DNA from: a virus
Virus record (IMG/VR): IMGVR_UViG_3300030104_003441
Location: 2,903-66,902 of that record
Direction: 5' to 3' (one strand)
DNA: 64,000 nt
Shown: positions 12,132 to 62,211 of the stretch, piece after piece
Layout: the number at the start of each line of letters is the position of its first letter
How positions within the stretch are numbered: the stretch's first letter is position 1
Notes under the pieces: model-generated
What the model was told of the DNA's origin: nothing
Database searches by the model: none
What the model saw: only the letters and a program-made list of their open reading frames with translations
Position numbers and translations under genes: made by a program

Positions 12132-13175
12132 TTAGAAGATTACATAGTTTGCTCCACACTTAAAGTTGTACCACTCTCTATTCCAGTACTTATAATATCT
12201 ACCCTCAAGAAATACACCTAAGTGTTTGTTAAATCTGTGTCCAAATATTAAACCGCCTGAGTAATCAAGCCATTGTCCGTTTACTGTATTGTGATACATA
12301 TACTCACCTCCAGTGTCGTAATGGTAGGGTAAAATATTTCCCCATGAGTGGAACCAGAAGTCGTCTGTAAAGTGATAGAAGTCGAAGCCGGCAACCACCG
12401 AGTAATTCCATTGACGAGAGAGTTCATTTCTTTTTCTAGCAGTGTATTCAGATAAGATGCTAGGGATAGTGACCGCCTCCCAGACTTCAGTGTTTGTTGC
12501 AACGACTGTTCCGTCAGGAGCGAGGTACTCGCCTGTAGTAAGGTTGTGTGAATATCCTTCTTCAATTGCGAGGTAAGTATAGTGTATATCTCCTGTTTCC
12601 AGCTTCCACTCTTCAAGTGGATCATACCCGTATGGTTCTGAGATACGCTGCGCGACACCTGCGTGCAAAGAAAACTTGTTACCGAGCTTAAGCCGAAATC
12701 GTTGCGAAGCTTCAAAGTATTCGATGTCTGCAAACCCGTCTTCAACGTATTCAACCTTACCCATAACTTTGTCTCCGATGTAACGAAAAAAGTGGTGCTG
12801 ATTAAAAAACTCTTTACCTTGCTGTCTTTCGTATGTAACTTCTCCAAGAAACTCTATGCCGTTACGTTTACCTATATTAGCGTCAGCAGACCAAGATGTC
12901 TCTGATCCATCATAAAAAGCATTAGCTCTGTTTTCATAACCAAACCTAGCGATCTTACGTACACCCATAGATAAACTGTAGTCAAACGGCGTAGCTATAG
13001 TCTCTTGAGTTAATCCACCTGTAACAGAGTATGTAGTTTGATCTGACACAGAGTTACCTCCATTTACAGCCGCGTAAAACGTGGAAAACTTAAACGCTTT
13101 CTTTAGTTCTTGAGCTTGTACTATAGTACAGCTAAATAGTAAGGTTAATAATAAACTTAATCGTGGTAGTAACAT
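12132..13175 (-). CDS. putative outer-membrane beta-barrel protein
   Basis: Signal peptide, alternating aromatic beta strands, C-terminal GANYVIF ending in Phe (BAM signal-like). Confidence 0.6.
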   Translation of the reverse strand: MLLPRLSLLLTLLFSCTIVQAQELKKAFKFSTFYAAVNGGNSVSDQTTYSVTGGLTQETIATPFDYSLSMGVRKIARFGYENRANAFYDGSETSWSADANIGKRNGIEFLGEVTYERQQGKEFFNQHHFFRYIGDKVMGKVEYVEDGFADIEYFEASQRFRLKLGNKFSLHAGVAQRISEPYGYDPLEEWKLETGDIHYTYLAIEEGYSHNLTTGEYLAPDGTVVATNTEVWEAVTIPSILSEYTARKRNELSRQWNYSVVAGFDFYHFTDDFWFHSWGNILPYHYDTGGEYMYHNTVNGQWLDYSGGLIFGHRFNKHLGVFLEGRYYKYWNREWYNFKCGANYVIF

Positions 13176-22100: not shown

Positions 22101-23719
22101 AAACCTTTGTTCTTGTAACCCTCAATTTCGGCGTGATACCTTTCTTTAATAATGTGATCTATATCTGAATCAGTTAAAGCAGGGTAAGCTTTTCTAACTT
22201 TTTGACCAAACAACGTCCAAGCATCTTCAGTACCTAAACGACCCTTTACTTCTTTAAGAGCATCGTCTATTGTAATAATTCCGGCTCTTATATCTTCAAC
22301 GCGTTTTGGATCGTCCATAAAAGCATGGAAACCGCTTCCGCCTTCTCCAAAATAATTGTCTAGCCAAGTTCTTGAAAAAGATTCTTTTTGCTCTACCCAC
22401 TCCTCTCCTTTTTCATCGGTTAAAGTAGGGTCTTCCTCTAAAAACGTAAGTAACTCTTTAGTAAATTCTGTGCTACTTCTAAGATTAAAATTCTTCGATA
22501 CACCATGAGAATTAGTTATAGTTATGTTATTAACACTAAGATACCTACCACTGCCATCAGAGTCTTCTCCAATACCTTCTTCTACTATGTAATCATTAGG
22601 AAGATACGTTGTAAGCTCCTTTGCAATCTTCTCTTCAGACCACCAACCACCAATATTTGTGTTAATAATTTCAGTTACAACTTCTCTAGCTTTTGTCTTT
22701 TCTTTTGTAGCTACAGCTTTTTGATATACTTTAAGAGCTTCGTTATACGGCTCTACAACCTCTTGATTATACAACTCCTCTACCTTATTAGACCACTGCT
22801 CTTGCATGTCCTCTTGCGCCTTTTGAATCTCTTCGGCTGTTGCGTTGGGTGATATTACAGATGTATCAAGTTCGATTTTATTTAATCGATCACGGTTTTC
22901 AGTATACCAATTGTTGATACCCTGCATTTCAGGTTTTTCAGCGTTGTTAGCTCTAACAAGATTTTCTTCAGAACTATAACCTTGCTCTTGGCCTTGTCTC
23001 ATTTGAGCCAAAAGAGCCTCTTTTTCTTTATCTTCTTCTGACAGCTCTTCTTCTACCGGCTCCTCTCCATACATCATTAAATCCGTAATCCTCTGCTCTT
23101 CTTCAGATATTGCGTCCGGCGTAGGGCCACTTAAACGTTTATCTTCTGCTTCGCGCAAAAGCTTCCCCAGCTCCTCCATTCTTTGATGTTCAGGACTAGA
23201 TGTGTCTATACCAAACGAAGCGAATAAACCATACGGGTCGTTTTCATTTGTATACTCAGGAGTTTGCGGGGTTGTTGGCTCTGGTACATCTAGGCTTAAG
23301 TTAAGTAATGATTGATCAAAATCAATAACCCCAGTAGTGTCTGGCATATCGTAGGAAACCTCAGGCATCTGTATGTTTTGTGAAACATCAAAAGTACTCT
23401 TTACCTGCGTTCCAAAAAGCCCTGTCGTTGCGCCGTCTTCTTCAGTTGCACTAGAGCGAGTAACACCTACGTTAAGCACAGTGCTACCTATATTACGCTG
23501 TCCTGCGTTACGTTGTGAAGTAGGTTGTGATTCAGGTAAACCAATAGAATAATCTCTTTGGAAATCACTAAAACTATTAGTATACAAATTGCTTTGTACA
23601 GCAAGTTTATTGTATAGTTCTCTAGCACCTTCTGGTGAACCATAGTCTATTTTAAACTGCTCAAACGAGTTGGTGTAAAGCTCTTGTTGAAATAACTTTG
23701 TATATAATTCTTGCATCAA
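13157..23719 (-). CDS. 3520-aa polyvalent virion/ejection protein (HExxH metallopeptidase, sigma-like segment, HAD phosphatase, C-terminal Cys/His knuckles)
   Basis: APHELGH (aa ~1381); DFDETL/LTAR/FVDD HAD motifs (aa ~2576 onward); two CxxxxxxGxxC...CxxH repeats; follows the ejection-protein genes. Confidence 0.75.
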   Translation of the reverse strand: MMQELYTKLFQQELYTNSFEQFKIDYGSPEGARELYNKLAVQSNLYTNSFSDFQRDYSIGLPESQPTSQRNAGQRNIGSTVLNVGVTRSSATEEDGATTGLFGTQVKSTFDVSQNIQMPEVSYDMPDTTGVIDFDQSLLNLSLDVPEPTTPQTPEYTNENDPYGLFASFGIDTSSPEHQRMEELGKLLREAEDKRLSGPTPDAISEEEQRITDLMMYGEEPVEEELSEEDKEKEALLAQMRQGQEQGYSSEENLVRANNAEKPEMQGINNWYTENRDRLNKIELDTSVISPNATAEEIQKAQEDMQEQWSNKVEELYNQEVVEPYNEALKVYQKAVATKEKTKAREVVTEIINTNIGGWWSEEKIAKELTTYLPNDYIVEEGIGEDSDGSGRYLSVNNITITNSHGVSKNFNLRSSTEFTKELLTFLEEDPTLTDEKGEEWVEQKESFSRTWLDNYFGEGGSGFHAFMDDPKRVEDIRAGIITIDDALKEVKGRLGTEDAWTLFGQKVRKAYPALTDSDIDHIIKERYHAEIEGYKNKGLDNLAAGFDERLLQGDITLTTLVPGMAVGEYDPTLDRGVGNRPGGIVRGYQAKEGKTVSIKDAEQFFKTYTASQINTIEDPLMRELASINYQLDNQENLRYAEIQSYISRRDQIIQKVREEGGEYEMLFDLTTGQLIRPVGKDNPFVTENTEDVSGEIQQQENELRAEFASNTNLTPRDMAREAYEKNAKALAVLNAKLNEVQSFEFYRPDIYFESNFATGESTQVGTTNKDMTLREALILSNKMDSEESFMKSGTNPLGMETSGGVSNFHHVFDADGVAERNILRQQMRDLKIQQEALKRIYLLNEDVISIEKNNAQNYAKLAIMSLPFIDSIGQAFNPEGAAFGYGNYTEREVIDEYTTTLSNAGIEIRGDQKAYIDRSFGEQFGEGLASSAGILVEFAIANKATASLRTAKIFAGGTKSLDMILKAHKAKRYWNGKQALTVAQATAAANNAKLPLSVYLAQGGYEATKGASLASKVGVFLTESTIEGAKFASLPSSSGARLESFATGFGFGGATQILSPMLGTINASTFSPAFQKTRFGAMMANNAPRLEKIYNLAFKGPLSFTVGSEVGELGLMLTDDLMGYEEFSGMIEEHYGDGSSNLQRWANNWAMGTAFGFTHKAAYKKAGTIESLREAKKEAEDAIFETRDNYVIFNKKTGKDFEVASKKNYQTKDFVIVARPGMRAYRTKTKDGKPMTKEYFADYSQLIQSLASQLRRSEDGLDLMDRTIGASRLKTRTLEQVKHYKEKGANVEVEYGSPDTYVIRDKRTGKVREVNKKPSGSGAANYEILMKPMEKRNAEVYYKDKDGNVMDVGLMGKKVKGSTVVVRYNVAEFAEGYAPHELGHSGMEILFGTNARFKSDFVQQLMGVAKKIKLGVDPDGNVPLFENLYDQIVEQNRQFDVEKTPWEAARAKDWELFSHIAEHLSKPENLRDLRKANAFGELRDLVKKTVGKELNQEYNFTKEADIVEFFGNYIESINRGKNSLKVLEHLQDVIAEPSSPEAREMERLYNEQGIHFTETSRLASESKRRRDLIKDNVDLFKNKPEGYEAKMQENIQAIRSIDDLLVIDRPAQNESDNARKERINRIHAGHKDIMFSKDLVGRDAQRQGEAIDAIISSYRGKTIAVAKSQGRFETPTFENMSKSEREDFAWDITRPELLKHLDAFNRKFRETDGKEGIENDDLDAYLNSYIVNKLGTALKRPGIEKTEFTGTTTDLKPGQEPVYTPSEMKLNNKTDARLRIDIRERLTDNAPEGRESQIKKGIKEHGKFVKDYIETTSDIPTSYRDLKNIKTPKEIVDKVFGKNTAERIETIGRTLDIAKKSALPEGTLSTRTGNVELEGKAIGVANTLQTINIAKKGQPANYKEVLYGTPKRIAEFTSKETGRLTAEADPTGQGNTPKELLKLSKAETLKRLGIKEVELGGGEVRYDIDNTLAKEYASEPGSKNEKAIARNIEGIRKNYMEEVVRGMTYQAAMENLPAVSQKLGIATEILANQISAGKARLASSRLELKDFTEQMEFLDQIESKEFKDLYEKAVTDGEEKAFEHAMITHFANNPIENISKADIKKIATQLEAQFTFTTMTPKRAIEASMKAIAYPKSLQSIEAKYGFEALETKNLYDSIEGIREGQAAFTMEGGIIETLTRVKGKGAFEALIKEGISKGAGLGTYRSHREYEVRNKRTGKVTTTNKKPSKSEIENPENPLEILSVTLIKTAEQNMIEGNTEFRSDNRFALFETAAKAQEAADGVYARLESEGVKLKDYEGSSRADSDGVGKKNKVLEGVTGKDGLWDLEARDKFDNIGEENKKALFDGKGKSSVIETIKDMYTNGDITYRQVRQIVEGQGGPMEGLIKKSASLAVLPEMSRADIEAKYGKNWVLEHTTPAQNVKARIYDYILSKGAAPQAKALELTLRDYHTTLIPESLDTMVNKILKTDLPSFHVPGMDPIESRYYMANHKSPFDLSLVNYRNGKVYSKTGLSVAEVSKRGAMLRESYAEMISPRLAEKNLEPTRMLEQMENMKKAVANSRNPRAKKKGMSTFDFDETLIVDGENFVVATKDGKRVEISSEQWPIEGPKYAEQGYEFDFSDFANVRGGADGPLLQKMKNQISKYGSNNVFVLTARQQASAEPIHSWLRSKGIDIPLENITGLGKSEGAAKAQWMLEKFAEGYNDMYFVDDALPNVEAVKEVLGQLDIKSNVQQARRLASQDMNLEFNKMIERKTGIGYEKIFSGAKGKMLGKRRYTQSIVVPGAQDFMGLMQNFMGKGKRGDADRAFFEENLVKPFARANREMNESRQRASEDLKALYKDIPSVKRKLNKRLPGSAFTFDQAIRTYLWEKNGFDIPELSMRDLKSMTDVINKDVDLRNFAEQLNMIGKGTWVEPSANWIGETIVSDLFNLNNKARRAEYLEEWQQNIDTIFTPTNLNKIEATQGSKFREALEDSLYRMRTGSNRPTGANRLTNQFNNWINGSVGATMFLNMRSAMLQTISATNYINWSFNNPVAAAKAFGNQKQYWKDFSMLWNSPMLKQRRAGLEYNVQEAELAAAMAGQKNPAKAAVAWLIKKGFTPTQIADSFAICAGGSTYYRNKIRELVKQGKTKQQAEEQAFLEFQELTETNQQSSRADLISQQQASGLGRTILAWSNTPMQYMRIQEKAARDIVNGRGDLKTNMSKIAYYGVIQSAIFSALQNALFRFGLEEEDENNEADNKDLSASIDRTVNTVIDSQLRGTGVLGAALSAIRNTVLEFEKQEAKAYDDSFLSSPDHSRTVLQLTSFSPVISSKLRKLYSAGNEWNYNREAISEMGFDIDNPAIHAGANVIEALSNLPVARLVQKVDNIQGMLDNNNETWQRVALLMGYPKWQLGIEDTEVEEAKQRGRDKIKAIKDAEREIEKQQKEIVKADEELAEVEDNMLDQDEEREQGAEEVQCAAVSRSGKRCSNMALPGENFCTIHQQVAQQEDEVQCSHIKKDGKQCKMKTKNKSGKCYYHD

Positions 23720-26124: not shown

Positions 26125-26153
26125 TATAGTTACACTTATTAGTGTTTATTTAC
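26125..26153 (-). promoter_or_regulatory. class B (middle/late) promoter motif
   Basis: Minus strand GTAA-N14-GTGTAACTATA upstream of the cupin and ejection genes. Confidence 0.65.
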
Positions 26154-26511
26154 TACTTTCAAAAGCATCCATGCCTATAGAGAACAGCTCTGCTTCAGTT
26201 GTAGAGTTGTTTACAAACTTAACGCTAGCATAGTATCCTAATATAGAGCTTAAATTAGCCTTGTTATCTTTGCTAAACAATACGAACTTAGTAGTGCTGT
26301 TTAAAGCGCCTGGTAATATTGTATCGCATATAACTGCTGGAGTAGATGACTGAGCATCATTTATCTGTCTTATCTGTCCTATTTCTACAACAGATCCACT
26401 GTTTTTTGTAAAACCACCGTCAGCTGAAGTATCTACGTAGTACGCAGTATCTCCAACTTGACACGAAGAGTTTAATGGCGCAGAAAACGTTAGAGTTAAA
26501 GAGTAAGGCAT
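26146..26511 (-). CDS. small tail-associated protein
   Basis: In tail cluster; FSKDNKANLSSILGYYA..F...AELFSI. Confidence 0.5.
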   Translation of the reverse strand: MPYSLTLTFSAPLNSSCQVGDTAYYVDTSADGGFTKNSGSVVEIGQIRQINDAQSSTPAVICDTILPGALNSTTKFVLFSKDNKANLSSILGYYASVKFVNNSTTEAELFSIGMDAFESSK

Positions 26512-49119: not shown

Positions 49120-49148
49120 CTATATTACACGTTTAGCGAAGTAATTAC
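49120..49148 (-). promoter_or_regulatory. class B promoter motif
   Basis: Minus strand GTAA-N14-GTGTAATATAG. Confidence 0.65.
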
Positions 49149-49414
49149 TCCACTAACACTACATCTCTCGCTCTAATTACATAGTACATTGTATTTGCCC
49201 AGGTTATACCATGTCCAGCGTGCTTGTCGTAATATATAATGTCTTTATCTTTTAGGCCTTCAACTAGATTACCTGTAGAGATAATCGTAGCTTTAATATA
49301 CCTATTGTTTTCGTCTAAGTCTTCAGTAAGAAGTAGGCCACCAACTTTCTTAGGACCTTCTTTTTCAATATCGACTATAATGTAATCATTGACCGCTTTC
49401 ATCTGCTCTAGCAT
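49145..49414 (-). CDS. groES: co-chaperonin GroES
   Basis: MKAVNDYIIV...KVGGLLL mobile loop...IISTG...YDKHAG...DVV; adjacent to groEL. Confidence 0.8.
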   Translation of the reverse strand: MLEQMKAVNDYIIVDIEKEGPKKVGGLLLTEDLDENNRYIKATIISTGNLVEGLKDKDIIYYDKHAGHGITWANTMYYVIRARDVVLVE

Positions 49415-53684: not shown

Positions 53685-53713
53685 TATAGTTACACGCTTA
53701 ATCTGCTATTTAC
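53685..53713 (-). promoter_or_regulatory. class B promoter heading the late block
   Basis: Minus strand GTAA-N14-GTGTAACTATA. Confidence 0.7.
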
Positions 53714-53717
53714 AAAG

Positions 53718-53764: not shown

Positions 53765-53800
53765 TAAAAAAACATATTGTAAATATAGGGGCTATGCGTT

Positions 53801-53829
53801 CCCCCCTCCCCCCGCCCCCTCCCCTCCCC
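53801..53829 (-). other. G-quadruplex-type tract
   Basis: Minus strand G4-A-G4-A-G5-C-G6-A-G6 in an AT-rich genome. Confidence 0.7.
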
Positions 53830-53890
53830 AGGAAAAGTCAAACTCTCACAGGGCCCCACCTACTTGTTAAACTCATTATTGCTCGTTTTT

Positions 53891-53921
53891 ACAATGTATC
53901 TACGACAGTATTTAGATAATA
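53891..53921 (+). promoter_or_regulatory. class A early promoter copy 1
   Basis: ACAA-TGTATC-TACGA-N8-AGATAATA. Confidence 0.7.
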
Positions 53922-53991
53922 AATATAGAAAAACAAACTAAAAAACTCTACTACATTTTTAAAATCGTTTACAAAACTTCTAAAACATTTT

Positions 53992-54022
53992 ACAAAATAA
54001 ATACGAGAATACTTAGATAATA
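53992..54022 (+). promoter_or_regulatory. class A early promoter copy 2
   Basis: ACAA-AATAAA-TACGA-N8-AGATAATA. Confidence 0.75.
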
Positions 54023-54036
54023 AATATGTAAATCAA

Positions 54037-54225
54037 ATGAACATGAAAACTCTTATAATTAAAACAATAGCTAACAACTTTAGAAAAAAGCTACCAATCG
54101 CTCGCAACTTAAAAGTTCAACACATTAACTACATGTATGAATATAACTACATTAAACTATTCAAATCATTAGTTGACTCATTCAAACTAGAACCTCAACA
54201 CTTCAATAATAGATTTATCAAATGA
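54037..54225 (+). CDS. early hypothetical protein
   Basis: ORF below promoter copy 2. Confidence 0.5.
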   Translation: MNMKTLIIKTIANNFRKKLPIARNLKVQHINYMYEYNYIKLFKSLVDSFKLEPQHFNNRFIK

Positions 54226-54287
54226 AACAATTACTCGAATCAATACTCATAATTGTAATAATACTACTGTGTTGTTGTGTGTACTAA
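54222..54287 (+). CDS. 21-aa hydrophobic peptide MKQLLESILIIVIILLCCCVY
   Basis: ATGA overlap with the upstream stop; TM-like. Confidence 0.35.
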   Translation: MKQLLESILIIVIILLCCCVY

Positions 54288-54360
54288 ATAATTGTACACT
54301 TACAGAAGTGGCGGAATACTACTAACGTGAAATTGTATACTAAACAAACAATACTCTTTT

Positions 54361-54391
54361 ACAAACTAAATACGTAAGCATTTAGATAATA
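54361..54391 (+). promoter_or_regulatory. class A early promoter copy 3
   Basis: ACAA-ACTAAA-TACGT-N8-AGATAATA. Confidence 0.75.
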
Positions 54392-54428
54392 ATAATAACT
54401 AAAACAAAAACATTAAATACTTTATATC

Positions 54429-54668
54429 ATGTCAAATAATACATTAACATCAAAGCGTTTCGTTCTACGTCAATCACTTGTTGGAAAGAACACTAACATT
54501 ACAGTAACATTCAAAAATGGTAACACAGTTACTTACTCACACGACAAAGCATTCACTATAATGCAAAAAGCACTTGAAGCAATGCCATGTTGGGCAAAGT
54601 ACAAGTCGTACACTGCTAGTAACAATATACCAAAAGTGTTGCGTGAAACTGAAGCAGTAGTAGCATAA
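54429..54668 (+). CDS. early hypothetical protein
   Basis: SKRFVLRQSLVGKN...CWAKYKSYT; A-rich leader. Confidence 0.7.
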   Translation: MSNNTLTSKRFVLRQSLVGKNTNITVTFKNGNTVTYSHDKAFTIMQKALEAMPCWAKYKSYTASNNIPKVLRETEAVVA

Positions 54669-54684
54669 CTACTCTTCAACATAA

Positions 54685-54777
54685 AGTCCAGTTAGTTTAG
54701 TGTTTACTGGTAAATCAAATATGAACACTAACATAGTAGTCATGGTGCCGAGTTGTGTTCGATTCACAAGCTACTAC
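54685..54777 (+). ncRNA. candidate structured RNA: pseudoknot plus tRNA-like minihelix
   Basis: CCAGT/ACTGG with TTAGTGTT/AACACTAA crossing pairs; TAGTAGT..TTGTG-TTCGATT-CACAA-GCTACTA. Confidence 0.5.
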
Positions 54778-54806
54778 AAACTAAATACGATAACTTACAG
54801 ATAATA
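54776..54806 (+). promoter_or_regulatory. class A early promoter copy 4 (leaderless geometry)
   Basis: Consensus match; ATG 6 nt after GATAAT. Confidence 0.8.
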
Positions 54807-54811
54807 ATACT

Positions 54812-55117
54812 ATGATATTCGATAAGAAACTACGAGCTGAAGTGAAAATACAGCGTGATGCAGTGCATCAATTACTCAAGCACCACTTGCCAAAGTACGA
54901 GCTAACACTAATCGGTGACAGTGAAATACAACTCACATGGCACTCAAATCCTCACTGTCTACGTGAAACATTACTTACGTGTAGTATGTATGGCGAGTGG
55001 CAATACGAAGAGCACCAATGGGAATGCTTCGATAACTATCATCACTCAACAGACTTAAAGGTTGACTACACGTCACCTGCTAACGAAGTTGTTAATGCAC
55101 TAATGAAACTACTATGA
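54812..55117 (+). CDS. early hypothetical protein
   Basis: Starts exactly at the predicted +1 of promoter copy 4. Confidence 0.7.
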   Translation: MIFDKKLRAEVKIQRDAVHQLLKHHLPKYELTLIGDSEIQLTWHSNPHCLRETLLTCSMYGEWQYEEHQWECFDNYHHSTDLKVDYTSPANEVVNALMKLL

Positions 55118-55369
55118 GATTACTATCAACTATCGCGCTGTGCTTAGTATTTAACGCAGAGATAAATCAAGGTTGGCAAGGCTGGGTAAACTCTACTTGG
55201 GATATTGTCACTATAATTGAAACTAGAAAAACTATATAATATGAGAAAATTTAATCACCTTGTAATCGCAGAGATTACCATGAAAGCATTACTTGCTTTA
55301 AATATTGGTACGTTTGGTATCGCTATAATAATGTTACTTGTTAACGTAGTATCAGACTTCACAAACTAA
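55114..55369 (+). CDS. two small hydrophobic ORFs (55114-55239, 55241-55369)
   Basis: MRLLSTIALCLVF...; MRKFNHL...DFTN* whose stop lies inside promoter copy 5. Confidence 0.45.
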
Positions 55370-55391
55370 TTACGATAAGTAATAGATAATA
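55361..55391 (+). promoter_or_regulatory. class A early promoter copy 5 (leaderless geometry)
   Basis: ACAA-ACTAAT-TACGA-N8-AGATAATA; ATG at 55397. Confidence 0.8.
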
Positions 55392-55396
55392 ATAAT

Positions 55397-55567
55397 ATGA
55401 AGACAATAAAATTTCTAAAAGACAAAAAAATACAAATAGGCAAACGTGTGTTTCGCCCATACTGTATCAGCGACTTACCAAACAACTTCGGTTGTATTAA
55501 CTACGGCGAGTCAGATGGTGTAACCGAATGGTTCGGCTACAAAGGTTTCACTTATATACCAGAATAA
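55397..55567 (+). CDS. early hypothetical protein (56 aa, not in ORF track)
   Basis: MKTIKFLKDKKIQIG...WFGYKGFTYIPE; starts at predicted +1. Confidence 0.65.
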   Translation: MKTIKFLKDKKIQIGKRVFRPYCISDLPNNFGCINYGESDGVTEWFGYKGFTYIPE

Positions 55568-55569
55568 TC

Positions 55570-55776
55570 ATGTATCTAACTATTCTATCTTACGACATTC
55601 TAAGAGGTAACGAAGTAATCACATATGAATTACCGAGTTATGCAGCGAAATTCCAATGCGAAGACATGGAAGAGTATATCTCAGTCACACTTGGTTTCAA
55701 TACAAACAACATTGACTGGCAAACTCACGAGGAATTACCTCAACTTGTTGAACTACATAATCAAGACTACGCATGA
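55570..55776 (+). CDS. early hypothetical protein (start likely 55570)
   Basis: MYLTILSYD...GFNTNNIDWQ. Confidence 0.6.
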   Translation: MYLTILSYDILRGNEVITYELPSYAAKFQCEDMEEYISVTLGFNTNNIDWQTHEELPQLVELHNQDYA

Positions 55777-56276
55777 ATCAAGCTAAAAAATACAGAAAAT
55801 ACTACGAAGCTCTCGACTTGATCGGTTGCAAGCACGTGTCAACACCACGTCAAATCAAGAACGGTACACGCGTATTCCGCCTACCTTTCAAAGACGCTTG
55901 GAATCAAGACATAGACTTTGCTACATACGAGTCAGGTTATGTACGTAGATTAGTAAAGCTCGGTTACTGTCCTTGTTATCAAATCAACAAGAGAAAGCCA
56001 GAAACTCGCCTAATTGAAGTGAAAAGCGGTCCACACAAAGGCTATTACTACAAAAGACGCTCAAACGAACGTGTGTTAATTGAAGGTAATGGCGATCGAC
56101 TAGAGTACTTATTCAACTATATTGTACGTAATTACTTCAAAGCTAAACCAAAGTACAATAGAACTATTGACCTAGAGTGGTTAAACTTCTGTGCAAAGTG
56201 GCAATACGGCGAGTTTGGCTTCAACACTTGCACTGAGCAACAGCAAAATGAAATACTAAAATCTTTACAATCATGA
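55773..56276 (+). CDS. early hypothetical protein
   Basis: STPRQIKNGT...YESGYVRR...YQINKR. Confidence 0.65.
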   Translation: MNQAKKYRKYYEALDLIGCKHVSTPRQIKNGTRVFRLPFKDAWNQDIDFATYESGYVRRLVKLGYCPCYQINKRKPETRLIEVKSGPHKGYYYKRRSNERVLIEGNGDRLEYLFNYIVRNYFKAKPKYNRTIDLEWLNFCAKWQYGEFGFNTCTEQQQNEILKSLQS

Positions 56277-56384
56277 ATTACTGTCCATGGGATACTGCAT
56301 TTAAACTATGCAAAGGCGCTTATACGCGCGAAGAAATCGACGAAATGTCGCTATGTGAAATTAACGAAATAATATTTGACCAAC

Positions 56385-56729
56385 ATGACTAGTTACGAAC
56401 AAAGAGCATATGATGCGCTCGCAATGAAGCTAACCGAAGCAGGTTACGCGTATGAGAATACAAGTTGGAGTAATGATGCAACTGCATCTATATCAGTAAC
56501 TTGCGTGCGTGTAGTTCAATCAGAAGATGAGATTGACAAAGTAATGAAGTATGAGTTTCAAATCTATATACCTAACTGTGATTACTTCGACCCAGATAAC
56601 GAGTATTTTAATACTTACGCACTCACTGACGAGATGACTGGTCACACATTTGATTTCGATCGAGCAGACGAAGTTGTAGAGCATATTCAAGATTGTGTCG
56701 ATGGTAATTCGGTTGTTTTTACAAACTAA
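56385..56729 (+). CDS. early hypothetical protein (start likely ATG 56385)
   Basis: ENTSWSNDATASI; stop codon lies inside promoter copy 6. Confidence 0.65.
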   Translation: MTSYEQRAYDALAMKLTEAGYAYENTSWSNDATASISVTCVRVVQSEDEIDKVMKYEFQIYIPNCDYFDPDNEYFNTYALTDEMTGHTFDFDRADEVVEHIQDCVDGNSVVFTN

Positions 56730-56751
56730 ATACGATTACTTTTAGATAATA
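56721..56751 (+). promoter_or_regulatory. class A early promoter copy 6 (leaderless geometry)
   Basis: Consensus match; ATG at 56757. Confidence 0.8.
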
Positions 56752-56756
56752 ATAAT

Positions 56757-56969
56757 ATGAAATGTCCAAAATGCAATAACACAATACCAACTGGCCGCGT
56801 GCGCCTTGGTTACAAAGTATGTGTCAACTGTTCTACTGTAGAGCGTTATGGTTGTGCACCGCTTATAAACCACAAGACAGGCAACTCAATACAAATTATG
56901 TCCAGCAGTGATGCTGCTCGTATTGCCAAGCTTACAAGGCGTCGCGGTTATGGTACAATGCTAAAATAA
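56757..56969 (+). CDS. C4 zinc-finger protein (TraR/DksA-type finger spacing)
   Basis: CPKC...IPTGRV.LGYKVCVNCS matches the CxxC..IP..R......CxxC pattern. Confidence 0.55.
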   Translation: MKCPKCNNTIPTGRVRLGYKVCVNCSTVERYGCAPLINHKTGNSIQIMSSSDAARIAKLTRRRGYGTMLK

Positions 56970-56970
56970 T

Positions 56971-57327
56971 ATGAATAAAGAAAATTTACAAACAAAGTTA
57001 GAAGCGCTAGAGGCTAACGTACAAGCAAAACAAAATGAATTAGGTGTTGCTATGTCAGAAGCTCAAATGGCGCGAGAAGAACTAGCTAATGCAGGTAAGC
57101 CTGAATTATCAGCAGACAAGGCTTCAGATCTAGTGGATTTGTTACAAGGTATGTTTCACGATATACTAAATGACTGTGACACTAGCGACCTAAGCCCAGA
57201 GTTCAGTATAGGCTACGATAACACTATCGAACTCGACTGTCTTGACATGAGCAGCATCGAAGTACATAGCTGTGATATCGAGTCTGTACTAGAGCAGATA
57301 TTCAATATAATGCCTGACAATAGCTAG
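56971..57327 (+). CDS. coiled-coil acidic early protein
   Basis: N-terminal heptads, acidic C-terminus. Confidence 0.65.
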   Translation: MNKENLQTKLEALEANVQAKQNELGVAMSEAQMAREELANAGKPELSADKASDLVDLLQGMFHDILNDCDTSDLSPEFSIGYDNTIELDCLDMSSIEVHSCDIESVLEQIFNIMPDNS

Positions 57328-57329
57328 TT

Positions 57330-57680
57330 AAGCACGACGGTGCAAGGTGTAGTAGAGCATATGTTGAAAATATTTCAAACTACTACATAACGGGTCAAGG
57401 TAGTCTACGCTACCGTAATGCCACCTAAAGTAGGACACGGGTAATTACCGTATTAAAGGCAATGACTACGCGTTGATCGCAGGTAGACCTGACGAAGGTA
57501 TCGCTGGTTAGGGTAACCGCCAGGACCATTACTCAGCAGCAATTCCGCTGTAAGAGCATGGGTACAAAGCCGGGTCAACGCTTTATATAAGAGTAACGGT
57601 TGGTTAGGGTCTAGTGCAGCTGATCTTAAGGTCAAGCACAATAAGAAACAATTCCGCAGGTTCGATTCCTGCTACTCTTA
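57330..57680 (+). ncRNA. candidate ~350-nt structured ncRNA ending in a tRNA-like domain
   Basis: Free of long + strand ORFs, GC-enriched, many hairpins, terminal GCAGG-TTCGATT-CCTGC T-arm stacked on AAGAGTA/TACTCTT. Confidence 0.65.
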
Positions 57681-57710
57681 CAAACTAAACACGAATACTA
57701 ACGGATAATA
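57680..57710 (+). promoter_or_regulatory. class A early promoter copy 7 (leaderless geometry)
   Basis: ACAA-ACTAAA-CACGA-N8-GGATAATA; ATG at 57716. Confidence 0.8.
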
Positions 57711-57715
57711 TTAAC

Positions 57716-57904
57716 ATGAAAGACTATATTACACAAGAGCTGTCAATGCTCGATCGTAGCATCGTAGCTACACCACACACCAAAGAAGACCTAGAGTCTT
57801 TTGCTAAAGCAAACAATGGTTGTAGCGATATACTACTTATGCAAATGGCAATGCAATACGGCTATAAGCTAGCATTAGAAAACTTAGAAACAGAATTAAT
57901 ATGA
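57716..57904 (+). CDS. early hypothetical protein
   Basis: Starts at predicted +1. Confidence 0.65.
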   Translation: MKDYITQELSMLDRSIVATPHTKEDLESFAKANNGCSDILLMQMAMQYGYKLALENLETELI

Positions 57905-58137
57905 GACAAACCTTATACCAAAGACTAACACCAGAGTGCAAAGAAGCTCTAGATCATAACTCTAAGCGTTGGCATGGCGCAACTAACAAAATAGTTAGCG
58001 TGCTATCGTCACATAAATTCTGGTCTGATTTAAGAGTAGGCGACGTACACTTTGTTGTACAGTTCGTAGATCTACCATTTGGAAAAATAACAAGCGGAAC
58101 ATATGCGTTCGGCGAAAACATTATTAAAGATGACTGA
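57901..58137 (+). CDS. early hypothetical protein
   Basis: ATGA overlap. Confidence 0.6.
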   Translation: MRQTLYQRLTPECKEALDHNSKRWHGATNKIVSVLSSHKFWSDLRVGDVHFVVQFVDLPFGKITSGTYAFGENIIKDD

Positions 58138-58408
58138 AAAAGAAAAAGCACTAGAAATGTTACCTAATTGGTTTCAAGGTGAAGTATATGAATTAGGCGA
58201 TGAAGTTCGTAATCCATTTAGTGGTGAAACGTGCTTACTTGACGCAGCAGAGTTAAGTATGTACGACCACATTAAAGGTTTAGAACTAGCAATAATAATG
58301 AACATACCTATATTTGACTTAGGTGATAAATATATTGACATTATAGACAAAGGTAAAGATTGGTTTTTGATTAAAAACCCTAACGCATACATGATACTAA
58401 TAGACTAA
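58130..58408 (+). CDS. early hypothetical protein (start likely 58130)
   Basis: LPNWFQG...VRNPFSGE...ELSMYD.IKG...NPNAYMILID. Confidence 0.65.
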   Translation: MTEKEKALEMLPNWFQGEVYELGDEVRNPFSGETCLLDAAELSMYDHIKGLELAIIMNIPIFDLGDKYIDIIDKGKDWFLIKNPNAYMILID

Positions 58409-58511
58409 TGAAGACACTAATATGTATATTATTTTTTTACGTAGTTTTAGGCGCGTATTTTGAGTATCAAAACAGACAAGAAAACGAAGACGAAATAGAA
58501 AGAGATTCATC

Positions 58512-58862
58512 ATGAGTACAAGAGCAACAATAAGGTTCGCAACACGCGAAGAAGGTGTACCTTTTGACAAACACCCAGAGCAATGGCACGCACAGTTCTA
58601 CAACCATTGGGACGGTTATCCTGAAGGATTAGGTGTAGAGATCGCAGAGTCATTTACTAATTATCGTAAAATAGAAGGCTGGGAAGTAGAAGCCCTTGAT
58701 ATTGTACACGGCGATGTAGAATACATATACTACATATGGCAGTGTCACGGTAAATCAGAGCCTTGGATTAGTATATTTAATGTTGACTGCGAGTGTGAAT
58801 TTGTAGGTACACCAGATATGTTACTAAAGAAATACAAACTAAATACGAACGATGACGGATAA
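58512..58862 (+). CDS. conserved phage hypothetical protein
   Basis: MSTRATI...YNHWDGYPEGLG...EYIYYI motif. Confidence 0.7.
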   Translation: MSTRATIRFATREEGVPFDKHPEQWHAQFYNHWDGYPEGLGVEIAESFTNYRKIEGWEVEALDIVHGDVEYIYYIWQCHGKSEPWISIFNVDCECEFVGTPDMLLKKYKLNTNDDG

Positions 58863-58864
58863 TA
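58834..58864 (+). promoter_or_regulatory. class A early promoter copy 8 (leaderless geometry)
   Basis: ACAA-ACTAAA-TACGA-N8-GGATAATA; ATG at 58870. Confidence 0.8.
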
Positions 58865-58869
58865 ATAAT

Positions 58870-59715
58870 ATGATGAGACATAAACCAATGCTGGCGTATC
58901 CAGTCAGCGATAAACCAATTGACTACAGCGATCCTGTATTCATGCAACCAAAGCTTGACGGCGTACGCTGCCTTATACAGTGTGACAAAAGCAAGGTAAC
59001 CGCATGGTCACGCACGGGTAAACAGTGGCTTAACATCGATCACATCTTGTTTAACTTGCAACCTTTTTTCAAGTTTCACCCAAATGTAGTACTTGATGGC
59101 GAGCTATATAACCACGACTTACGTGATGATTTCGAGCAAATTATCTCTTGCGTGCGTAAGACTAAACCAACAGATCAACACCGCTTTGATTCAGCTAGAC
59201 TTGTGCAGTTTCACTGCTACGATATAGTTGGCAAAGGTATGCATCTTCCATATGCTAAACGCGCAGAGTGGATCGGCGAAAATGTCATGCCTAACCACTG
59301 CGTCAAACGCGTGCAAGCTTATGTTGTTGGCTGTGAAGATCAAGCTAAGGCTTATCACCAGAAAAACCTAGACAAAGGTTACGAAGGCTCTATACTACGT
59401 CTTAACACTGAGTACCAAGAAAAGCGTTCTCATAGCTTGCGTAAGTTCAAAGACTTCCACGACACCGAAGCAGAGATTATTGGTTGGGTTGAAGGCAAAG
59501 GCAAGCGTGTAGGCACGATCGGTAAGTTCTTGGCTCGTGATGCTGATGGCATCGAGTTCGGTATGCCTGTTATGGATAACTTCAAGTACCTACAGGCTAA
59601 CTTCAAAGCTATGCAAGGCTGGGTTGGCAAAACTGCTACGTTTACTTACTTCGAGCGTACTAAAGCTAACAGCTATCGTCATCCACTGTTCAAATGTATA
59701 CGCGACTACGAATGA
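58870..59715 (+). CDS. lig: ATP-dependent DNA ligase (start likely 58870)
   Basis: KPMLA, QPKLDGVRC (motif I), LDGELY, YEGSILR, RHP motifs. Confidence 0.9.
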   Translation: MMRHKPMLAYPVSDKPIDYSDPVFMQPKLDGVRCLIQCDKSKVTAWSRTGKQWLNIDHILFNLQPFFKFHPNVVLDGELYNHDLRDDFEQIISCVRKTKPTDQHRFDSARLVQFHCYDIVGKGMHLPYAKRAEWIGENVMPNHCVKRVQAYVVGCEDQAKAYHQKNLDKGYEGSILRLNTEYQEKRSHSLRKFKDFHDTEAEIIGWVEGKGKRVGTIGKFLARDADGIEFGMPVMDNFKYLQANFKAMQGWVGKTATFTYFERTKANSYRHPLFKCIRDYE

Positions 59716-60738: not shown

Positions 60739-60784
60739 TGTGACAATAGCCCCTAATAGTACTAAGTAACAGGCTTATGTCACA
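60739..60784. repeat. palindromic element B (inverted homolog of 53718-53764)
   Basis: TGTGACAATAGCCCCTAATAGTA...AGGCTTATGTCACA; overlaps the ATG at 60777. Confidence 0.7.
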
Positions 60785-61400
60785 GTATGAACGCAACTTA
60801 GAGCTGTTAAACAAGAGACGCATCGTATATAGAAGAGATCCTATAACAGATACACCTGATATAGAAAATGATATGTATATGTTCTTTGAAAACGGCACAC
60901 ATCAATGCTATGATCTATTTAAGAGCACAGCAAAGATAACCACCTACAAGAGTCTTAAGTGGCACTTGTTAGTGCTGTGGTATCTAAATCCAGGTATGGA
61001 TCAAGATGAATTTATGGATATAGCTTTTGAAATATCTGCTAAGACAAATGGTTTTGTTAGTTTTAACATGCCGCCTAACTTATTAGAAAAAATAGTATAT
61101 GAAGTCAGCATACAAGAGATTAAAGAACCACCGAAAAACAAACTCAGAAAAGTTATTTTCAAAATGTTTTCAGGGCTTACCAAAGAGCAGAAACTACGTA
61201 TTGTAGGTAAGCTTATTGGTAGATCAAATAAAACGCATCCTGACGACATTTATCAGGCTATGATAGATATACATGACTTAGGCCAAAAGATTACGATAAA
61301 ACGTATCTCTGAGGCTCTAAGGGTATCATCTAGGACCGTGCATAGATATATGTGCGAGGATTTAAAACGTGAAAAAGAATTATTAAACAAACAACTATGA
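60777..61400 (+). CDS. HTH DNA-binding protein, possibly replication-initiator-like (PriCT-like plus HTH)
   Basis: C-term ITIKRISEALRVSSRTVHRYM helix-turn-helix. Confidence 0.6.
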   Translation: MSQYERNLELLNKRRIVYRRDPITDTPDIENDMYMFFENGTHQCYDLFKSTAKITTYKSLKWHLLVLWYLNPGMDQDEFMDIAFEISAKTNGFVSFNMPPNLLEKIVYEVSIQEIKEPPKNKLRKVIFKMFSGLTKEQKLRIVGKLIGRSNKTHPDDIYQAMIDIHDLGQKITIKRISEALRVSSRTVHRYMCEDLKREKELLNKQL

Positions 61401-62152
61401 AGTGTTATAATGTACAAAACTACATCCGTTATAAAAAAGATATAAAGCAGATAGTAAAACGCACTGACTTTTGTAGACCATGGGATGAGATGACTCGCGA
61501 TGAACTAGTTACCTTATTTCTACCTCTTGCAGAAAACCTAGCTAGAAAGTTTTCAACAACTCAGCAAGCTAGCGGTGTAATGACTATTAATGATCTTATA
61601 CAAGAAGCTAATAAAAATTTAGTTATTGCTGTAGATAAAATTAGCTGGGATACTATATATGAAGCTGAAGACCCAGAGCAAAGACTTAAATCATTTTTGT
61701 CAAAAAGAATTAAAGGCGGCGTGCGAAGAGCTGTAGATATAAACCGAGGCACTATGCGTATACCTGAGCACAAGCTAAATGAAATACGTAAAAATGATAA
61801 AGACAGAAGTCAATTAGAAATATTTTTTAACTCAGTGTTTGTTAGTTTAGATAAAATGCTGGACGACGCAAATATAGGGTTTGAAGTGCCTGATAAAATT
61901 AAAAGCTATAACCCCGAACTACTGTGTTCTTATTTGCTTAATTTACTAAATCAGCATTTAACAGATCGAGAGTCCGATGTCATAAAGTTTAGCTTTGGTT
62001 TAGGTTGTGATAAGCTGTCAGCGAAGCAAATAGCAGATAAGCTAGACATAAGAGGCGACAGCGCTTACGTACGCATATCGCAGTTAAAAAAGCAAGCGAT
62101 TGATAAACTTGTAGAAAACGTAGACTACTCGCAAGTGGTTGACTTTCTATAG
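61397..62152 (+). CDS. sigma70-family RNA polymerase sigma factor
   Basis: Region 2 LAENLARKF...DLIQEAN..LVIAVDK...IKGGVRRAV...MRIP; region 4 LTDRESDVI...FGL...KQIADKL...RISQLKKQAIDKL. Confidence 0.9.
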   Translation: MKCYNVQNYIRYKKDIKQIVKRTDFCRPWDEMTRDELVTLFLPLAENLARKFSTTQQASGVMTINDLIQEANKNLVIAVDKISWDTIYEAEDPEQRLKSFLSKRIKGGVRRAVDINRGTMRIPEHKLNEIRKNDKDRSQLEIFFNSVFVSLDKMLDDANIGFEVPDKIKSYNPELLCSYLLNLLNQHLTDRESDVIKFSFGLGCDKLSAKQIADKLDIRGDSAYVRISQLKKQAIDKLVENVDYSQVVDFL

Positions 62153-62161
62153 TTTACTCGT

Positions 62162-62190
62162 GTAAAAACGTAGATAAATGTGTAATTATA
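62162..62190 (+). promoter_or_regulatory. class B promoter motif
   Basis: GTAA-N14-GTGTAATTATA immediately after the sigma gene, before the recombination genes. Confidence 0.7.
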
Positions 62191-62211
62191 TATATGTAAA
62201 CCATATACCAA

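Follow-up and report, generated by a model that had tools for sequence, protein, structure and literature searches.

Here we describe a family of putative early promoters in an uncultured phage. The DNA analysed, which we call the window, is a stretch of 64,000 nucleotides (nt) that makes up bases 2903-66902 of the 66,902-bp contig IMGVR_UViG_3300030104_003441 in IMG/VR, and positions below are those of the window. Since the ends of the contig overlap by 70 bp, the genome is circular or was circularly assembled. Its genes lie in two divergent blocks. The minus-strand block runs from about 53.7 kb down to 3.8 kb and encodes GroES and GroEL, the terminase, the portal, a muzzle-like protein of 2,064 amino acids, an open reading frame (ORF) of 3,520 amino acids, a protein with a type IX secretion system (T9SS) sorting domain and an M15 endolysin. 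The plus-strand block runs from 53.9 kb through the contig join to 3.65 kb and encodes small ORFs, an ATP-dependent ligase, a pyrimidine-dimer glycosylase, a helix-turn-helix (HTH) protein, a sigma-70-family protein, ERF, a PDDEXK nuclease, a primase-helicase, ThyA, MazG and a class II ribonucleotide reductase. No DNA polymerase family was detected among the ORFs scanned, despite the primase-helicase, ligase, ERF, exonuclease, ThyA, MazG and ribonucleotide reductase, and Pfam found no RNA polymerase (RNAP) gene among them.

The terminase is 63% identical to that of the uncultured podovirus MW202828.1 and 44.6% identical to those of the Flavobacterium elemo phages, and all the named hosts among its 87 matching records are Flavobacteriia. 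Most of the cellular bins that contain the promoter motif described below are likewise assigned to Flavobacterium, Flavobacteriaceae or Bacteroidetes; the T9SS domain and the taxonomy of these bins agree with a flavobacterial host. The phage is an uncultured podophage of Flavobacteriia of about 67 kb, distantly related to Elemovirus and the Calle-type flavophages.

A rigid motif at the head of the early genes

The plus-strand block opens with eight copies of the motif ACAA-N6-YACGW-N8-RGATAATA, hereafter class 1, which are almost certainly, to judge by their sequence and placement, the promoters of the first-expressed genes. A first-pass annotation made from the letters of the window had placed copies at 53891, 53992, 54361, 54776, 55361, 56721, 57680 and 58834, and all eight are exact matches on the plus strand, while in 100 dinucleotide-preserving shuffles the mean count was 0.00 and the maximum 0. 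Over its full 66,902 bp, the genome has these eight plus-strand sites and none on the minus strand. A looser pattern, ACG-N10-GATAAT, finds only these eight in the whole genome, and a sharper consensus allowing up to three mismatches recovers seven of them, with no additional site; the copy at 53891 is the most divergent. The copies are confined to the first 5 kb of the plus-strand module, and the full-genome scan added none outside it, in agreement with the annotation's restriction of the motif to the early region. It had also described an invariant spacing with a free N8 spacer and a gap of 21 nt between TTTACA and GATAAT. Both descriptions held, the spacer being nearly uninformative (information content below 0.5 bit at -21 to -14 over 259 unique sites of the family).

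The extended consensus is T-ACAAAcTAAATACGA-N9-GATAATA, that is, a contiguous upstream block of 16 bp, T(-37)ACAAAcTAAATACGA(-22), a purine at -13 and GATAATA at -12 to -6. The numbering comes from the bases downstream. Counting 12 nt on from the G of GATAAT, one reaches a purine in 256 of the 259 sites (A in 58%, G in 41%), preceded by T or C in 83%; as no search pattern included these two columns, neither is forced. A conserved pyrimidine-purine step 7 nt after the hexamer places GATAAT at -12 to -7 of a bacterial-RNAP-type promoter, with the purine as predicted +1. Every sigma-70-family region 2 requires an A at -11 and a T at -7, and class 1 has both. Its -10 region accordingly resembles that of a sigma-70-family promoter, with A at the second position, T at the sixth and a predicted purine start 6-8 nt downstream. 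Its upstream part does not, since no hexamer lies 16-18 nt before the -10 element: TTTACA is 21 nt away, and the 16-bp block, which reaches to -22, spans the place of the -35 element and half of the spacer.

The individual copies differ in what follows them. Copy 1 (53891-53927), whose upstream block is the most divergent, has GATAAT at 53915-53920, a predicted +1 at 53927 and no ORF start within 60 nt. Copy 2 (53992-54028) carries an "ATGTAA" start variant with its predicted +1 at 54028, a G, and is followed by an ORF at 54037-54225, and copy 3 (54361-54397), with a predicted +1 at 54397, would leave a leader of about 32 nt before the ORF at 54429-54668. In the other five of the eight, the predicted +1 is the A of an ATG. 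These are copy 4 (54776-54812; +1 at 54812, predicted leaderless ORF 54812-55117), copy 5 (55361-55397; +1 at 55397, ORF 55397-55567), copy 6 (56721-56757; +1 at 56757, ORF 56757-56969), which is identical to the consensus, copy 7 (57680-57716; +1 at 57716, ORF 57716-57904), which adjoins the 3′ end of a tRNA-like element, and copy 8 (58834-58870; +1 at 58870), where the ATG lies in frame within the ATP-dependent DNA ligase ORF listed from 58852 and ending at 59715. Across the 259 sites of the family, an ATG stands at the predicted +1 in 57, RYGTAA begins two bases earlier (its G being +1) in 53, and 149 have some other sequence. With three local copies and the majority of those in the family standing free of an ATG, class 1 is better read as a transcription signal than as a translation signal. 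The promoter-like behaviour of the motif follows from its being strand-specific, lying before ORFs and keeping the pyrimidine-purine step 7 nt after a -10-like hexamer. If the predicted +1 holds, many early mRNAs would be leaderless, in contrast to the 5.5% of leaderless mRNAs given in the part of the Flavobacterium psychrophilum transcription start map that was available to us (PMC9723704).

The motif is not peculiar to this phage. Scanning IMG/VR with a relaxed pattern found it in at least 202 stretches, many of them on contigs of 60-70 kb. A scan of the full genome and its relatives, which the annotation had proposed as a check, thus gave the eight sites here and clustered single-strand copies elsewhere. 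In five complete relatives, the loose core occurs forward/reverse 7/0, 0/10, 0/19, 9/0 and 2/8 times, with 0-2 matches for the reversed control, and the relatives carry 7-19 class-1 copies each, on a single strand and in one cluster. Each half of the motif also predicts the other. When only ACG-N10-GATAAT is used as the anchor, 49 of 49 sites in six genomes have T-ACAAA-n-TAAAT directly upstream and in register. When only the upstream block is used, in four whole genomes, GATAATA stands at the fixed register in 30 of 39 same-strand matches and in 0 of 17 opposite-strand matches; GATAAT is invariant in the 30 in-cluster sites (30/30), and the remaining 9 of the 39 are degenerate and lie outside the cluster. 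The family statistics come from loci fetched by motif-based or sigma-based queries, so that absolute frequencies are biased toward canonical copies. Searching the phage collection by blastn with the early region returned only a 138-nt match to Flavobacterium immuto phages, and a 50-nt promoter query returned chance matches only. We found no description of the motif, or of sigma-encoding flavophages, in the literature within our coverage, which excluded subscription journals, and the words promoter and sigma are absent from the text seen of the phi38:1 infection paper (PMC5335546). Class 1 is almost certainly a widespread, undescribed promoter family of uncultured flavophages.

One relative of 70,691 bp in IMG/VR (G003) has the promoter cluster at both of its ends, at 1-6.5 kb and 64.5-70.4 kb, with small differences between the two. 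Either the assembly ran past the closing point of a circular genome with strain variation, or the early region lies within a long terminal repeat. A search of sequencing runs for expression data gave 19 DNA runs and one RNA run (share 0.06), all in the form of contigs; those of the RNA run and of two DNA runs were fragmentary pieces of relatives and yielded no transcript starts or ends. In some of these contigs, the end of one promoter copy runs straight into the gene that follows another copy (window 54806/56963, 58864/55396 and 56969/55392), and others share the promoter only and diverge on both sides, with loose ends at 56716-56761 and 58830-58873. Early gene cassettes therefore seem, from these junctions, to be shuffled at the promoter repeats. 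T4-type phages are known to shuffle cassettes at their early promoters in this way.

The phage sigma factor and a second putative promoter class

Downstream of all eight class-1 copies lies the gene for a sigma-70-family factor of 251 amino acids with regions 2 and 4 (61397-62152, plus strand), as the annotation had described for a free sigma gene. The protein matches PHROG 351 (E 7e-15), the Pfam families Sigma70_r4 (1.7e-5) and Sigma70_r2 (0.04), and the NCBIfam sigma-70 family (4.8e-10, below the cut-off of that model). Its start is overlapped by the stop of a 207-aa ORF with a weak C-terminal HTH (60777-61400, plus strand), and it is the last gene before the first copy of a second rigid element, class 2, with the sequence (T/a)GTAAA-N13-(G/A)TGTAA(C/T)TATA. 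The plus-strand copy of class 2 (62161-62196), which lies 28 nt after the sigma stop codon, consists of TGTAAA, 17 nt and a TGT-extended AATTAT, has its predicted +1 at 62196, and precedes the ERF, exonuclease, primase-helicase and nucleotide-metabolism genes. On the minus strand, one copy (53685-53714) heads the minus-strand gene block and diverges from class-1 copy 1, another (26125-26154) precedes the operon with the 3,520-aa virion ORF, and a variant one base shorter, GTGTAA-TATA (49121-49149), lies downstream of GroES. Class 2 has canonical sigma-70 geometry: TGTAAA at -35 to -30, a spacer of 17 nt, T at -15 and G at -14, and AAyTAT at -12 to -7. Its start region, ATATAT-G-TAAAC, is also that of one variant of class 1. 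It is kept at the same places in relatives, including the heads of the minus-strand operons.

How would the sigma gene itself be transcribed? There are no plus-strand terminators in the early module, and because of this the gene would be reached by read-through from class 1. The order of class 1, small genes, sigma, class 2, and DNA-metabolism and late genes suggests the order of a temporal cascade. The same arrangement recurs in the sigma loci of relatives, for which we kept 80 of at least 408 confirmed sigma-encoding IMG/VR stretches. Among the 66 loci with 3 kb or more of upstream sequence, 58 have a full class-1 copy upstream of sigma. Of the same-strand class-1 copies, 285 of 307 are upstream of sigma, 22 are downstream, and 3 further copies are on the other strand, so the annotation's observation that these promoters precede the sigma gene extends well beyond the window. 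A class-2 core follows the sigma stop within 150 nt in 60 of 77 loci.

Eight sigma loci lack an exact class-1 copy, and they help to separate the two classes. Six of them have variants in which GATAATA and the register are kept and the upstream block is different, and two have none. The variant blocks are uniform within each genome (ATAAGTTTAATACGA, ACAAACAAAATA, CYYAACTAAWTAC, or ACAAAYTAAAT without ACG). The recognition helix of sigma region 4, AYVR[I/V]S[Q/E]LKKQA, is nearly unchanged across the canonical and variant lineages, and so are the class-2 elements. A sigma that reads class 2 is favoured because the constant class pairs with the constant helix and the changing class-1 block does not track region 4. 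From gene order and this covariation, the phage sigma most likely serves class 2. The 207-aa HTH ORF adjoins sigma in some relatives only, and its helix does not obviously track the block.

A more distant comparison is given by MW202828.1, the relative whose terminase is 63% identical, which has no sigma, no homologue of the giant ORF and no class-1 motif. It carries 14 copies of CGGTGTCGTTAACGACACAA, 15-35 nt upstream of small ORFs between 43.7 and 55.2 kb. CGGTGTCGTTAACGACACAA is a rigid 20-mer with a palindromic core, at a place equivalent to that of class 1. Together with the block variants described above, these putative promoters show the early-promoter determinant being replaced between lineages with the genome architecture kept. 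A dedicated factor that evolves along with its sites would be expected to leave this pattern, and so could a switch of host.

The arrangement has a partial precedent in phages phiEco32 and 7-11, which likewise have no RNAP of their own, an early promoter cluster before small genes, a sigma-70-family gene and a distinct rigid promoter class before later genes, the last being in our phage a candidate by position and covariation (PMC8948821, consulted in part). The promoters of the 7-11 sigma gp47 were defined experimentally as GTAAtg-(16)-aCTA, with starts 6-9 nt downstream, and class 2 here, GTAAAn-16/17-aCTA, resembles them (PMC8948821). As the two sigmas share a weak region-4 match only, the likeness is resemblance and not membership. 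Apart from the host phylum, the difference lies in the early promoters, which in the sections of that source available to us are ordinary host sigma-70 promoters in phiEco32 and 7-11 (PMC8948821), whereas class 1 is as rigid as a late class and unlike the host consensus. Thus one part of a phage sigma cascade is found, namely a sigma-70-family protein, while early promoters of the host primary-sigma type are not, class 1 being unlike TAnnTTTG.

The reader of class 1

The annotation had set class 1 apart from the primary-sigma promoter of Bacteroidota, which it gave as TTTG at -33 and TAnnTTTG at -7. That consensus agrees with the transcription start map of F. psychrophilum, where sigma-A promoters have TAnnTTTG at -12 to -5 beside sigma-54 promoters, an SM5 variant and a CGT box of the extracytoplasmic function (ECF) type (PMC9723704, seen in part). 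Class 1 is indeed unlike it. Where TAnnTTTG would stand at -12 to -5, class 1 has GATAATA at -12 to -6 followed by w-a-w-a-t. In place of TTTG or TTG near -33, it has ACAAA at -36 to -32 in at least 93% of the 259 sites, columns that are partly forced by the search pattern, and in the four whole genomes every in-cluster site has ACA[AG] from -36 onward, which the anchor itself fixes. Against the mapped sigma-A promoter (PMC9723704, as far as consulted), class 1 shares the A at -11, the T at -7 and an AT-rich context; it differs in having no TTTG at -8 to -5, a G for the T at -12, no TTTG at -33 and a conserved upstream block at -37 to -22. In Bacteroidota, the TTTG or TTG of a sigma-A promoter stands 19-21 nt before the TA; where TTG-N17-23-TAnnTTTG matches this genome, it is not positioned at a gene start, and generic sigma-70 matches are no more frequent than chance predicts (35 against 34 ± 5.5). 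A related elemo phage has plain TAnnTTTGCA promoters.

The motif, its rigidity, strand, position and conservation across the family, the start-site signature, the second class with its placement and the lack of host sigma-A-type features are all observed; from them we infer promoter status, the +1, the temporal order, the pairing of proteins with promoter classes and a determinant other than sigma-A, and propose the following mechanism. GATAATA would act as a -10-type element 7 nt before the conserved pyrimidine-purine step at which transcription is predicted to start, a geometry that argues for a bacterial multisubunit RNAP opening the DNA with a sigma-70-type reader of the -10 element. The upstream block, centred near -30, would be the site of a separate, lineage-specific DNA-binding determinant acting in the manner of an activator at its box. 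Host core RNAP with this non-sigma-A specificity determinant would then read class 1 as immediate-early promoters and produce leaderless or short-leader mRNAs for the small takeover genes and the DNA ligase, with read-through supplying the phage sigma as well. The sigma would in turn direct host core RNAP to class 2, and hence to the recombination and nucleotide-metabolism genes and the minus-strand chaperonin and structural operons. The nearest formal analogue is found in the T4 middle promoters, which combine a MotA box with a sigma-70 -10 element through sigma appropriation and need early phage proteins. They are alike in having a -10-type hexamer and a specific box near -30 that replaces the -35 element at a non-canonical spacing, and unlike in that class-1 sites would be the first promoters of the genome and have a contiguous box of 16 bp. 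Pfam scans of the ORFs (sets of 23, 5, 46 and 17 queries, some of them repeated) returned no MotA or AsiA family, though distant analogues may escape such a scan.

On balance, we hold that a determinant other than sigma-A, with the cascade as described, is somewhat likelier to be right than wrong, and less than half of that confidence extends to delivery of the determinant in the virion. The determinant is possibly a phage protein delivered by the virion or possibly a host factor. The annotation's proposal of a phage-specific reader stands in one part: the upstream block changes with GATAATA fixed, and MW202828.1 has its own 20-mer, both of which suggest a lineage-specific reader, which may or may not be phage-encoded. 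Its further suggestion that the factor comes from the virion is possible and gained no support. A relaxed Pfam search for a hidden sigma or HTH in 17 virion or minus-strand ORFs found none, and copies of the motif in Flavobacteriales chromosomes keep a host-encoded reader alive. In particular, we consider it rather unlikely that the virion packages a sigma-like factor or a sigma-appropriating activator, as distinct from an RNAP, which would retarget host core RNAP at time zero.

Several points weigh against the scheme as a whole. Three of the eight copies have no ATG at the predicted +1, and the -10 and +1 assignments are drawn from sequence statistics. The assignment of sigma to class 2 is drawn from gene order and a small covariation sample (13 loci and the window), and the co-occurrence of sigma and motif is confounded by phylogeny and would also fit a sigma that reads class 1. 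The similarity of this sigma to gp47 of 7-11 is weak, as hhalign assigns the region-4 match a probability of 25% and tblastn in the phage collection returned no match. Lastly, five independent, intergenic, near-perfect copies of class 1 lie in large chromosomal contigs of Flavobacteriales or Bacteroidetes, and a host factor that reads the motif could make a phage factor unnecessary.

These chromosomal copies came from a scan of 185,579 species genomes, which found class 1 in 55 stretches. Most of the 55 are phage DNA caught in metagenome bins, on contigs that are short or carry several copies, and four are single matches inside long ORFs of unrelated bacteria, as chance predicts. The five intergenic copies match the consensus also at positions that the pattern leaves free. 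The genes that begin 25-100 nt downstream of them are ORFans or encode small secreted or TerB-domain proteins, and housekeeping genes such as recG, parAB and a BCCT transporter lie on either side; each host genome has 1-2 copies, some having the same spacer. One genome has a block of five unknown genes with 29% GC, headed by two copies that lie 1.7 kb from each other. PADLOC recognized nothing among the genes behind the chromosomal copies except a weak PDC-S48 row (E 3.7e-4) for a TerB protein, and compared with the phage loci these genes gave one weak similarity (30% over 79 amino acids). The chromosomal copies may be sites of a host factor, phage-derived cassettes, or host genes wired to fire on infection. 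A query with the phage sigma in five host bins gave no match, though a single query is no evidence of absence.

Could the host holoenzyme alone read class 1? Sigma-A might be helped by the AT-rich block, or an alternative sigma or activator with a small regulon might serve, and in either case the promoters would need no infection to be active. Phages that lack an RNAP mostly start on the host holoenzyme, phiEco32 and 7-11 being examples (PMC8948821, in the sections available). Five intergenic chromosomal copies beside RecG, ParA/ParB and BCCT genes exceed the roughly 0.7 expected by chance in intergenic Flavobacteriia sequence, a rough hand estimate from base composition, and the A at -11 and the T at -7 are present. 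Nothing else, however, is common to class 1 and TAnnTTTG/TTTG, and none of the six promoter classes in the portion of the F. psychrophilum map consulted is like it (PMC9723704). The rigidity over about 23 positions, across phages whose sigmas differ by 40%, is typical of dedicated phage systems, the related elemo phage that relies on sigma-A has ordinary host-type promoters, and the upstream block changes between phage sub-lineages. The 1-2 copies per host genome, including some spacer-sharing duplicates, do not form a regulon. We regard host reading as unlikely, albeit a possibility to be taken seriously.

The phage sigma might instead read class 1, or possibly both classes, as a positively autoregulated system that is primed by sigma from the virion or by leaky transcription. 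It is encoded by five of five motif-bearing relatives and absent (tblastn, E ≤1e-3) from two of two motif-less ones, its region 2 has RpoD-like matches, and the two classes share their -10 type (nATwAT) as well as ATATAT-G-TAAAC as the sequence of discriminator and start. Yet in the window the gene is downstream of every class-1 copy, with no other promoter placed for its first expression, and a class-2 promoter directly follows sigma in 60 of the 77 loci. The region-4 helix, moreover, stays constant where the class-1 upstream block changes, and Pfam revealed no sigma-like domain among the virion-module ORFs. We consider this account improbable.

A third possibility is that class 1 is read by an RNAP packaged in the virion, in the style of N4 or of gp66 of crAss-like phage phi14:2, with the 3,520-aa ORF as the enzyme. 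This ORF (13157-23719, minus strand, TTG start) lies downstream of the muzzle-like ORF of 2,064 amino acids, in which Pfam finds the C-terminal domain of the crAss muzzle (28.9 bits against a cut-off of 27), and that is where crAss-like phages keep their virion RNAP. The N4 virion RNAP is of the same size. In phi14:2, as far as the portion of the report available goes, early genes are transcribed by the virion RNAP gp66 (bioRxiv 10.1101/2020.03.07.982082). The muzzle domain, the giant ORF at the syntenic place, its size and this precedent all speak for the idea, but the giant ORF has no sequence, motif or fold signal of a polymerase, the fold having been assessed for residues 2550-3520. It has an HExxH at 1381, a DxDxT of the haloacid dehalogenase (HAD) type at 2576 and two C-terminal Cys/His clusters, and no match to Pfam, PHROG or PDB sequences. 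No DFDxD occurs in any large ORF, BLASTP against phi14:2 gp65, gp66 and gp67 gave nothing below E 0.07, and the DFD[I/V]D motif and gp66 homology that mark a crAss-like virion RNAP are thus both lacking. A DSDID at 517 is unconserved (6 of 120 homologues align there, and they vary), and no T7-like A, B and C motifs were found in a credible arrangement within the ORF.

Only the last approximately 1,000 residues of the giant protein are conserved. This C-terminal family comprises 1,518 proteins at E ≤1e-5 among 2,551 candidates scored, within a searched length range of 1,936-6,160 amino acids; the 120 matches listed are unnamed or "hypothetical", and some members of the family are fused to zeta-toxin/AAA kinase domains (PF06414, PF13671). 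AlphaFold2 modelled residues 2550-3520 from a 24-row alignment with a predicted local distance difference test (pLDDT) score of 63.8 and a predicted template-modelling (pTM) score of 0.36, as a HAD-like alpha/beta domain followed by helices, without beta-barrels. Foldseek of this model against the PDB returned nothing at E ≤0.001, the weak local rows being HAD phosphatases and no polymerase, an ESM-Atlas search in two halves returned unnamed clusters only, and tblastn of the first 2,854 residues against phages found no match. We therefore rejected the giant ORF as a candidate RNAP, there being no polymerase signal by Pfam, PHROGs, PDB sequences, BLASTP, motifs, or AlphaFold2 and Foldseek (residues 2550-3520 modelled); with a model of modest quality for those residues, it is unlikely to be a polymerase.

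The promoters, too, fit a virion RNAP poorly, as the geometry of class 1 is of the sigma-70 type. The N4 virion RNAP recognizes a conserved short hairpin formed by an inverted repeat, and the class-1 blocks, as read from the consensus, are not self-complementary and have an unconserved spacer between them. The phi14:2 early transcripts have no common motif in the part of the study consulted, and its middle promoters are there given an "extended tripartite motif" (bioRxiv 10.1101/2020.03.07.982082). We found the sequences upstream of g070, g075, g108 and g110 of phi14:2 to be TTTG...TAnnTTTGTA, that is, of the host sigma-A type, and no class-1 copy in bases 1-100,000 of its 100,418-bp record. 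The two phages do resemble each other in a Bacteroidota host, divergent early (plus) and middle/late (minus) modules, a GroEL in the minus block (35% identity), a muzzle-like tail protein and structured or abundant non-coding RNA in the early region (bioRxiv 10.1101/2020.03.07.982082, in part). They differ in that no gp66 homologue was found here and in that class 1 is rigid where the phi14:2 early transcripts are motif-less. With GroEL (35%) the only match, no gp66 homologue and middle promoters of the host type, a phi14:2-like crAssvirus was rejected as the model, and we consider reading by a virion RNAP very improbable. As a separate observation, AACAAYTAAAAC / ACAAYTAAAAC occurs 10-20 nt upstream of four phi14:2 early genes (267, 1963, 2175 and 98894, all on the plus strand), and bears a faint likeness to the first half of the class-1 block.

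Finally, we give almost no credence to the idea that the copies are recombination, packaging, replication, translation-initiation or RNA-processing signals, since, although they act as cassette boundaries in relatives' contigs and A-rich sequence before an ATG suits Bacteroidota translation, three of the eight copies here and 149 of the 259 overall have neither ATG at offset 12 nor RYGTAA at offset 10, the single-strand orientation, placement before ORFs, -10-like hexamer and pyrimidine-purine step are features of promoters, and cassette shuffling, as in T4-type phages, is a consequence of promoter repeats and no alternative to them.

Flavobacteriia are the dominant bacteria in the breakdown of algal blooms, and most of their phages have not been cultured. 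The start of transcription in flavophages is known from one system, the virion RNAP of phi14:2, and class 1 is apparently a second and widespread one. This second solution would comprise two rigid promoter classes and a phage sigma, with no phage RNAP found, in a group with at least 408 sigma-encoding and at least 202 motif-bearing IMG/VR stretches, and it includes an early class with exact predicted starts that no known flavobacterial sigma should read. If a specificity factor is indeed packaged, it would be a third way to start phage transcription besides host-type promoters and virion RNAPs. The chromosomal copies before ORFan and TerB-domain genes would, if that is true, be infection-triggered "tripwire" promoters, silent until the phage factor arrives. 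To our knowledge, E. coli-type parts do not work in Bacteroidota, and the phage sigma with its promoters is a candidate orthogonal pair for that phylum. In metagenomic contigs of the clade, the motif serves as a sequence tag for the early region, its orientation and its gene cassettes.

Other elements of the early region

Some of the DNA between the early genes has features of structured RNA. The window has no RNA genes by ARAGORN or by Rfam at gathering thresholds. A 390-nt ORF-free gap (window 57328-57682, plus strand) is GC-richer than its surroundings and structured, with a minimum free energy (MFE) z of -2.6. At its end, a tRNA-like element (57605-57680, plus strand), whose 3′ end adjoins class-1 copy 7, scores 17.4 bits against the Rfam tRNA threshold of 29. 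The element has a perfect T-arm, GCAGGTTCGATTCCTGC, and an acceptor stem of 7 bp, with no ARAGORN call, and the T-arm GCAGGTTCGATTCCTGC also precedes a promoter copy in two relatives (G001 and G004). Directly before class-1 copy 4 (54735-54775, plus strand) stands TGTGTTCGATTCACA, which resembles a T-arm, has a possible acceptor mini-helix and may be a processing signal between transcription units.

The region between the two gene blocks holds one more element. Within the 228 nt that separate the minus-strand class-2 promoter from class-1 copy 1 lies a C-rich tract, CCCCCCTCCCCCCGCCCCCTCCCCTCCCC (53795-53830), which may serve as an origin, as a packaging end or as a boundary element; a C-rich stretch occurs at the equivalent place in the relative G001.

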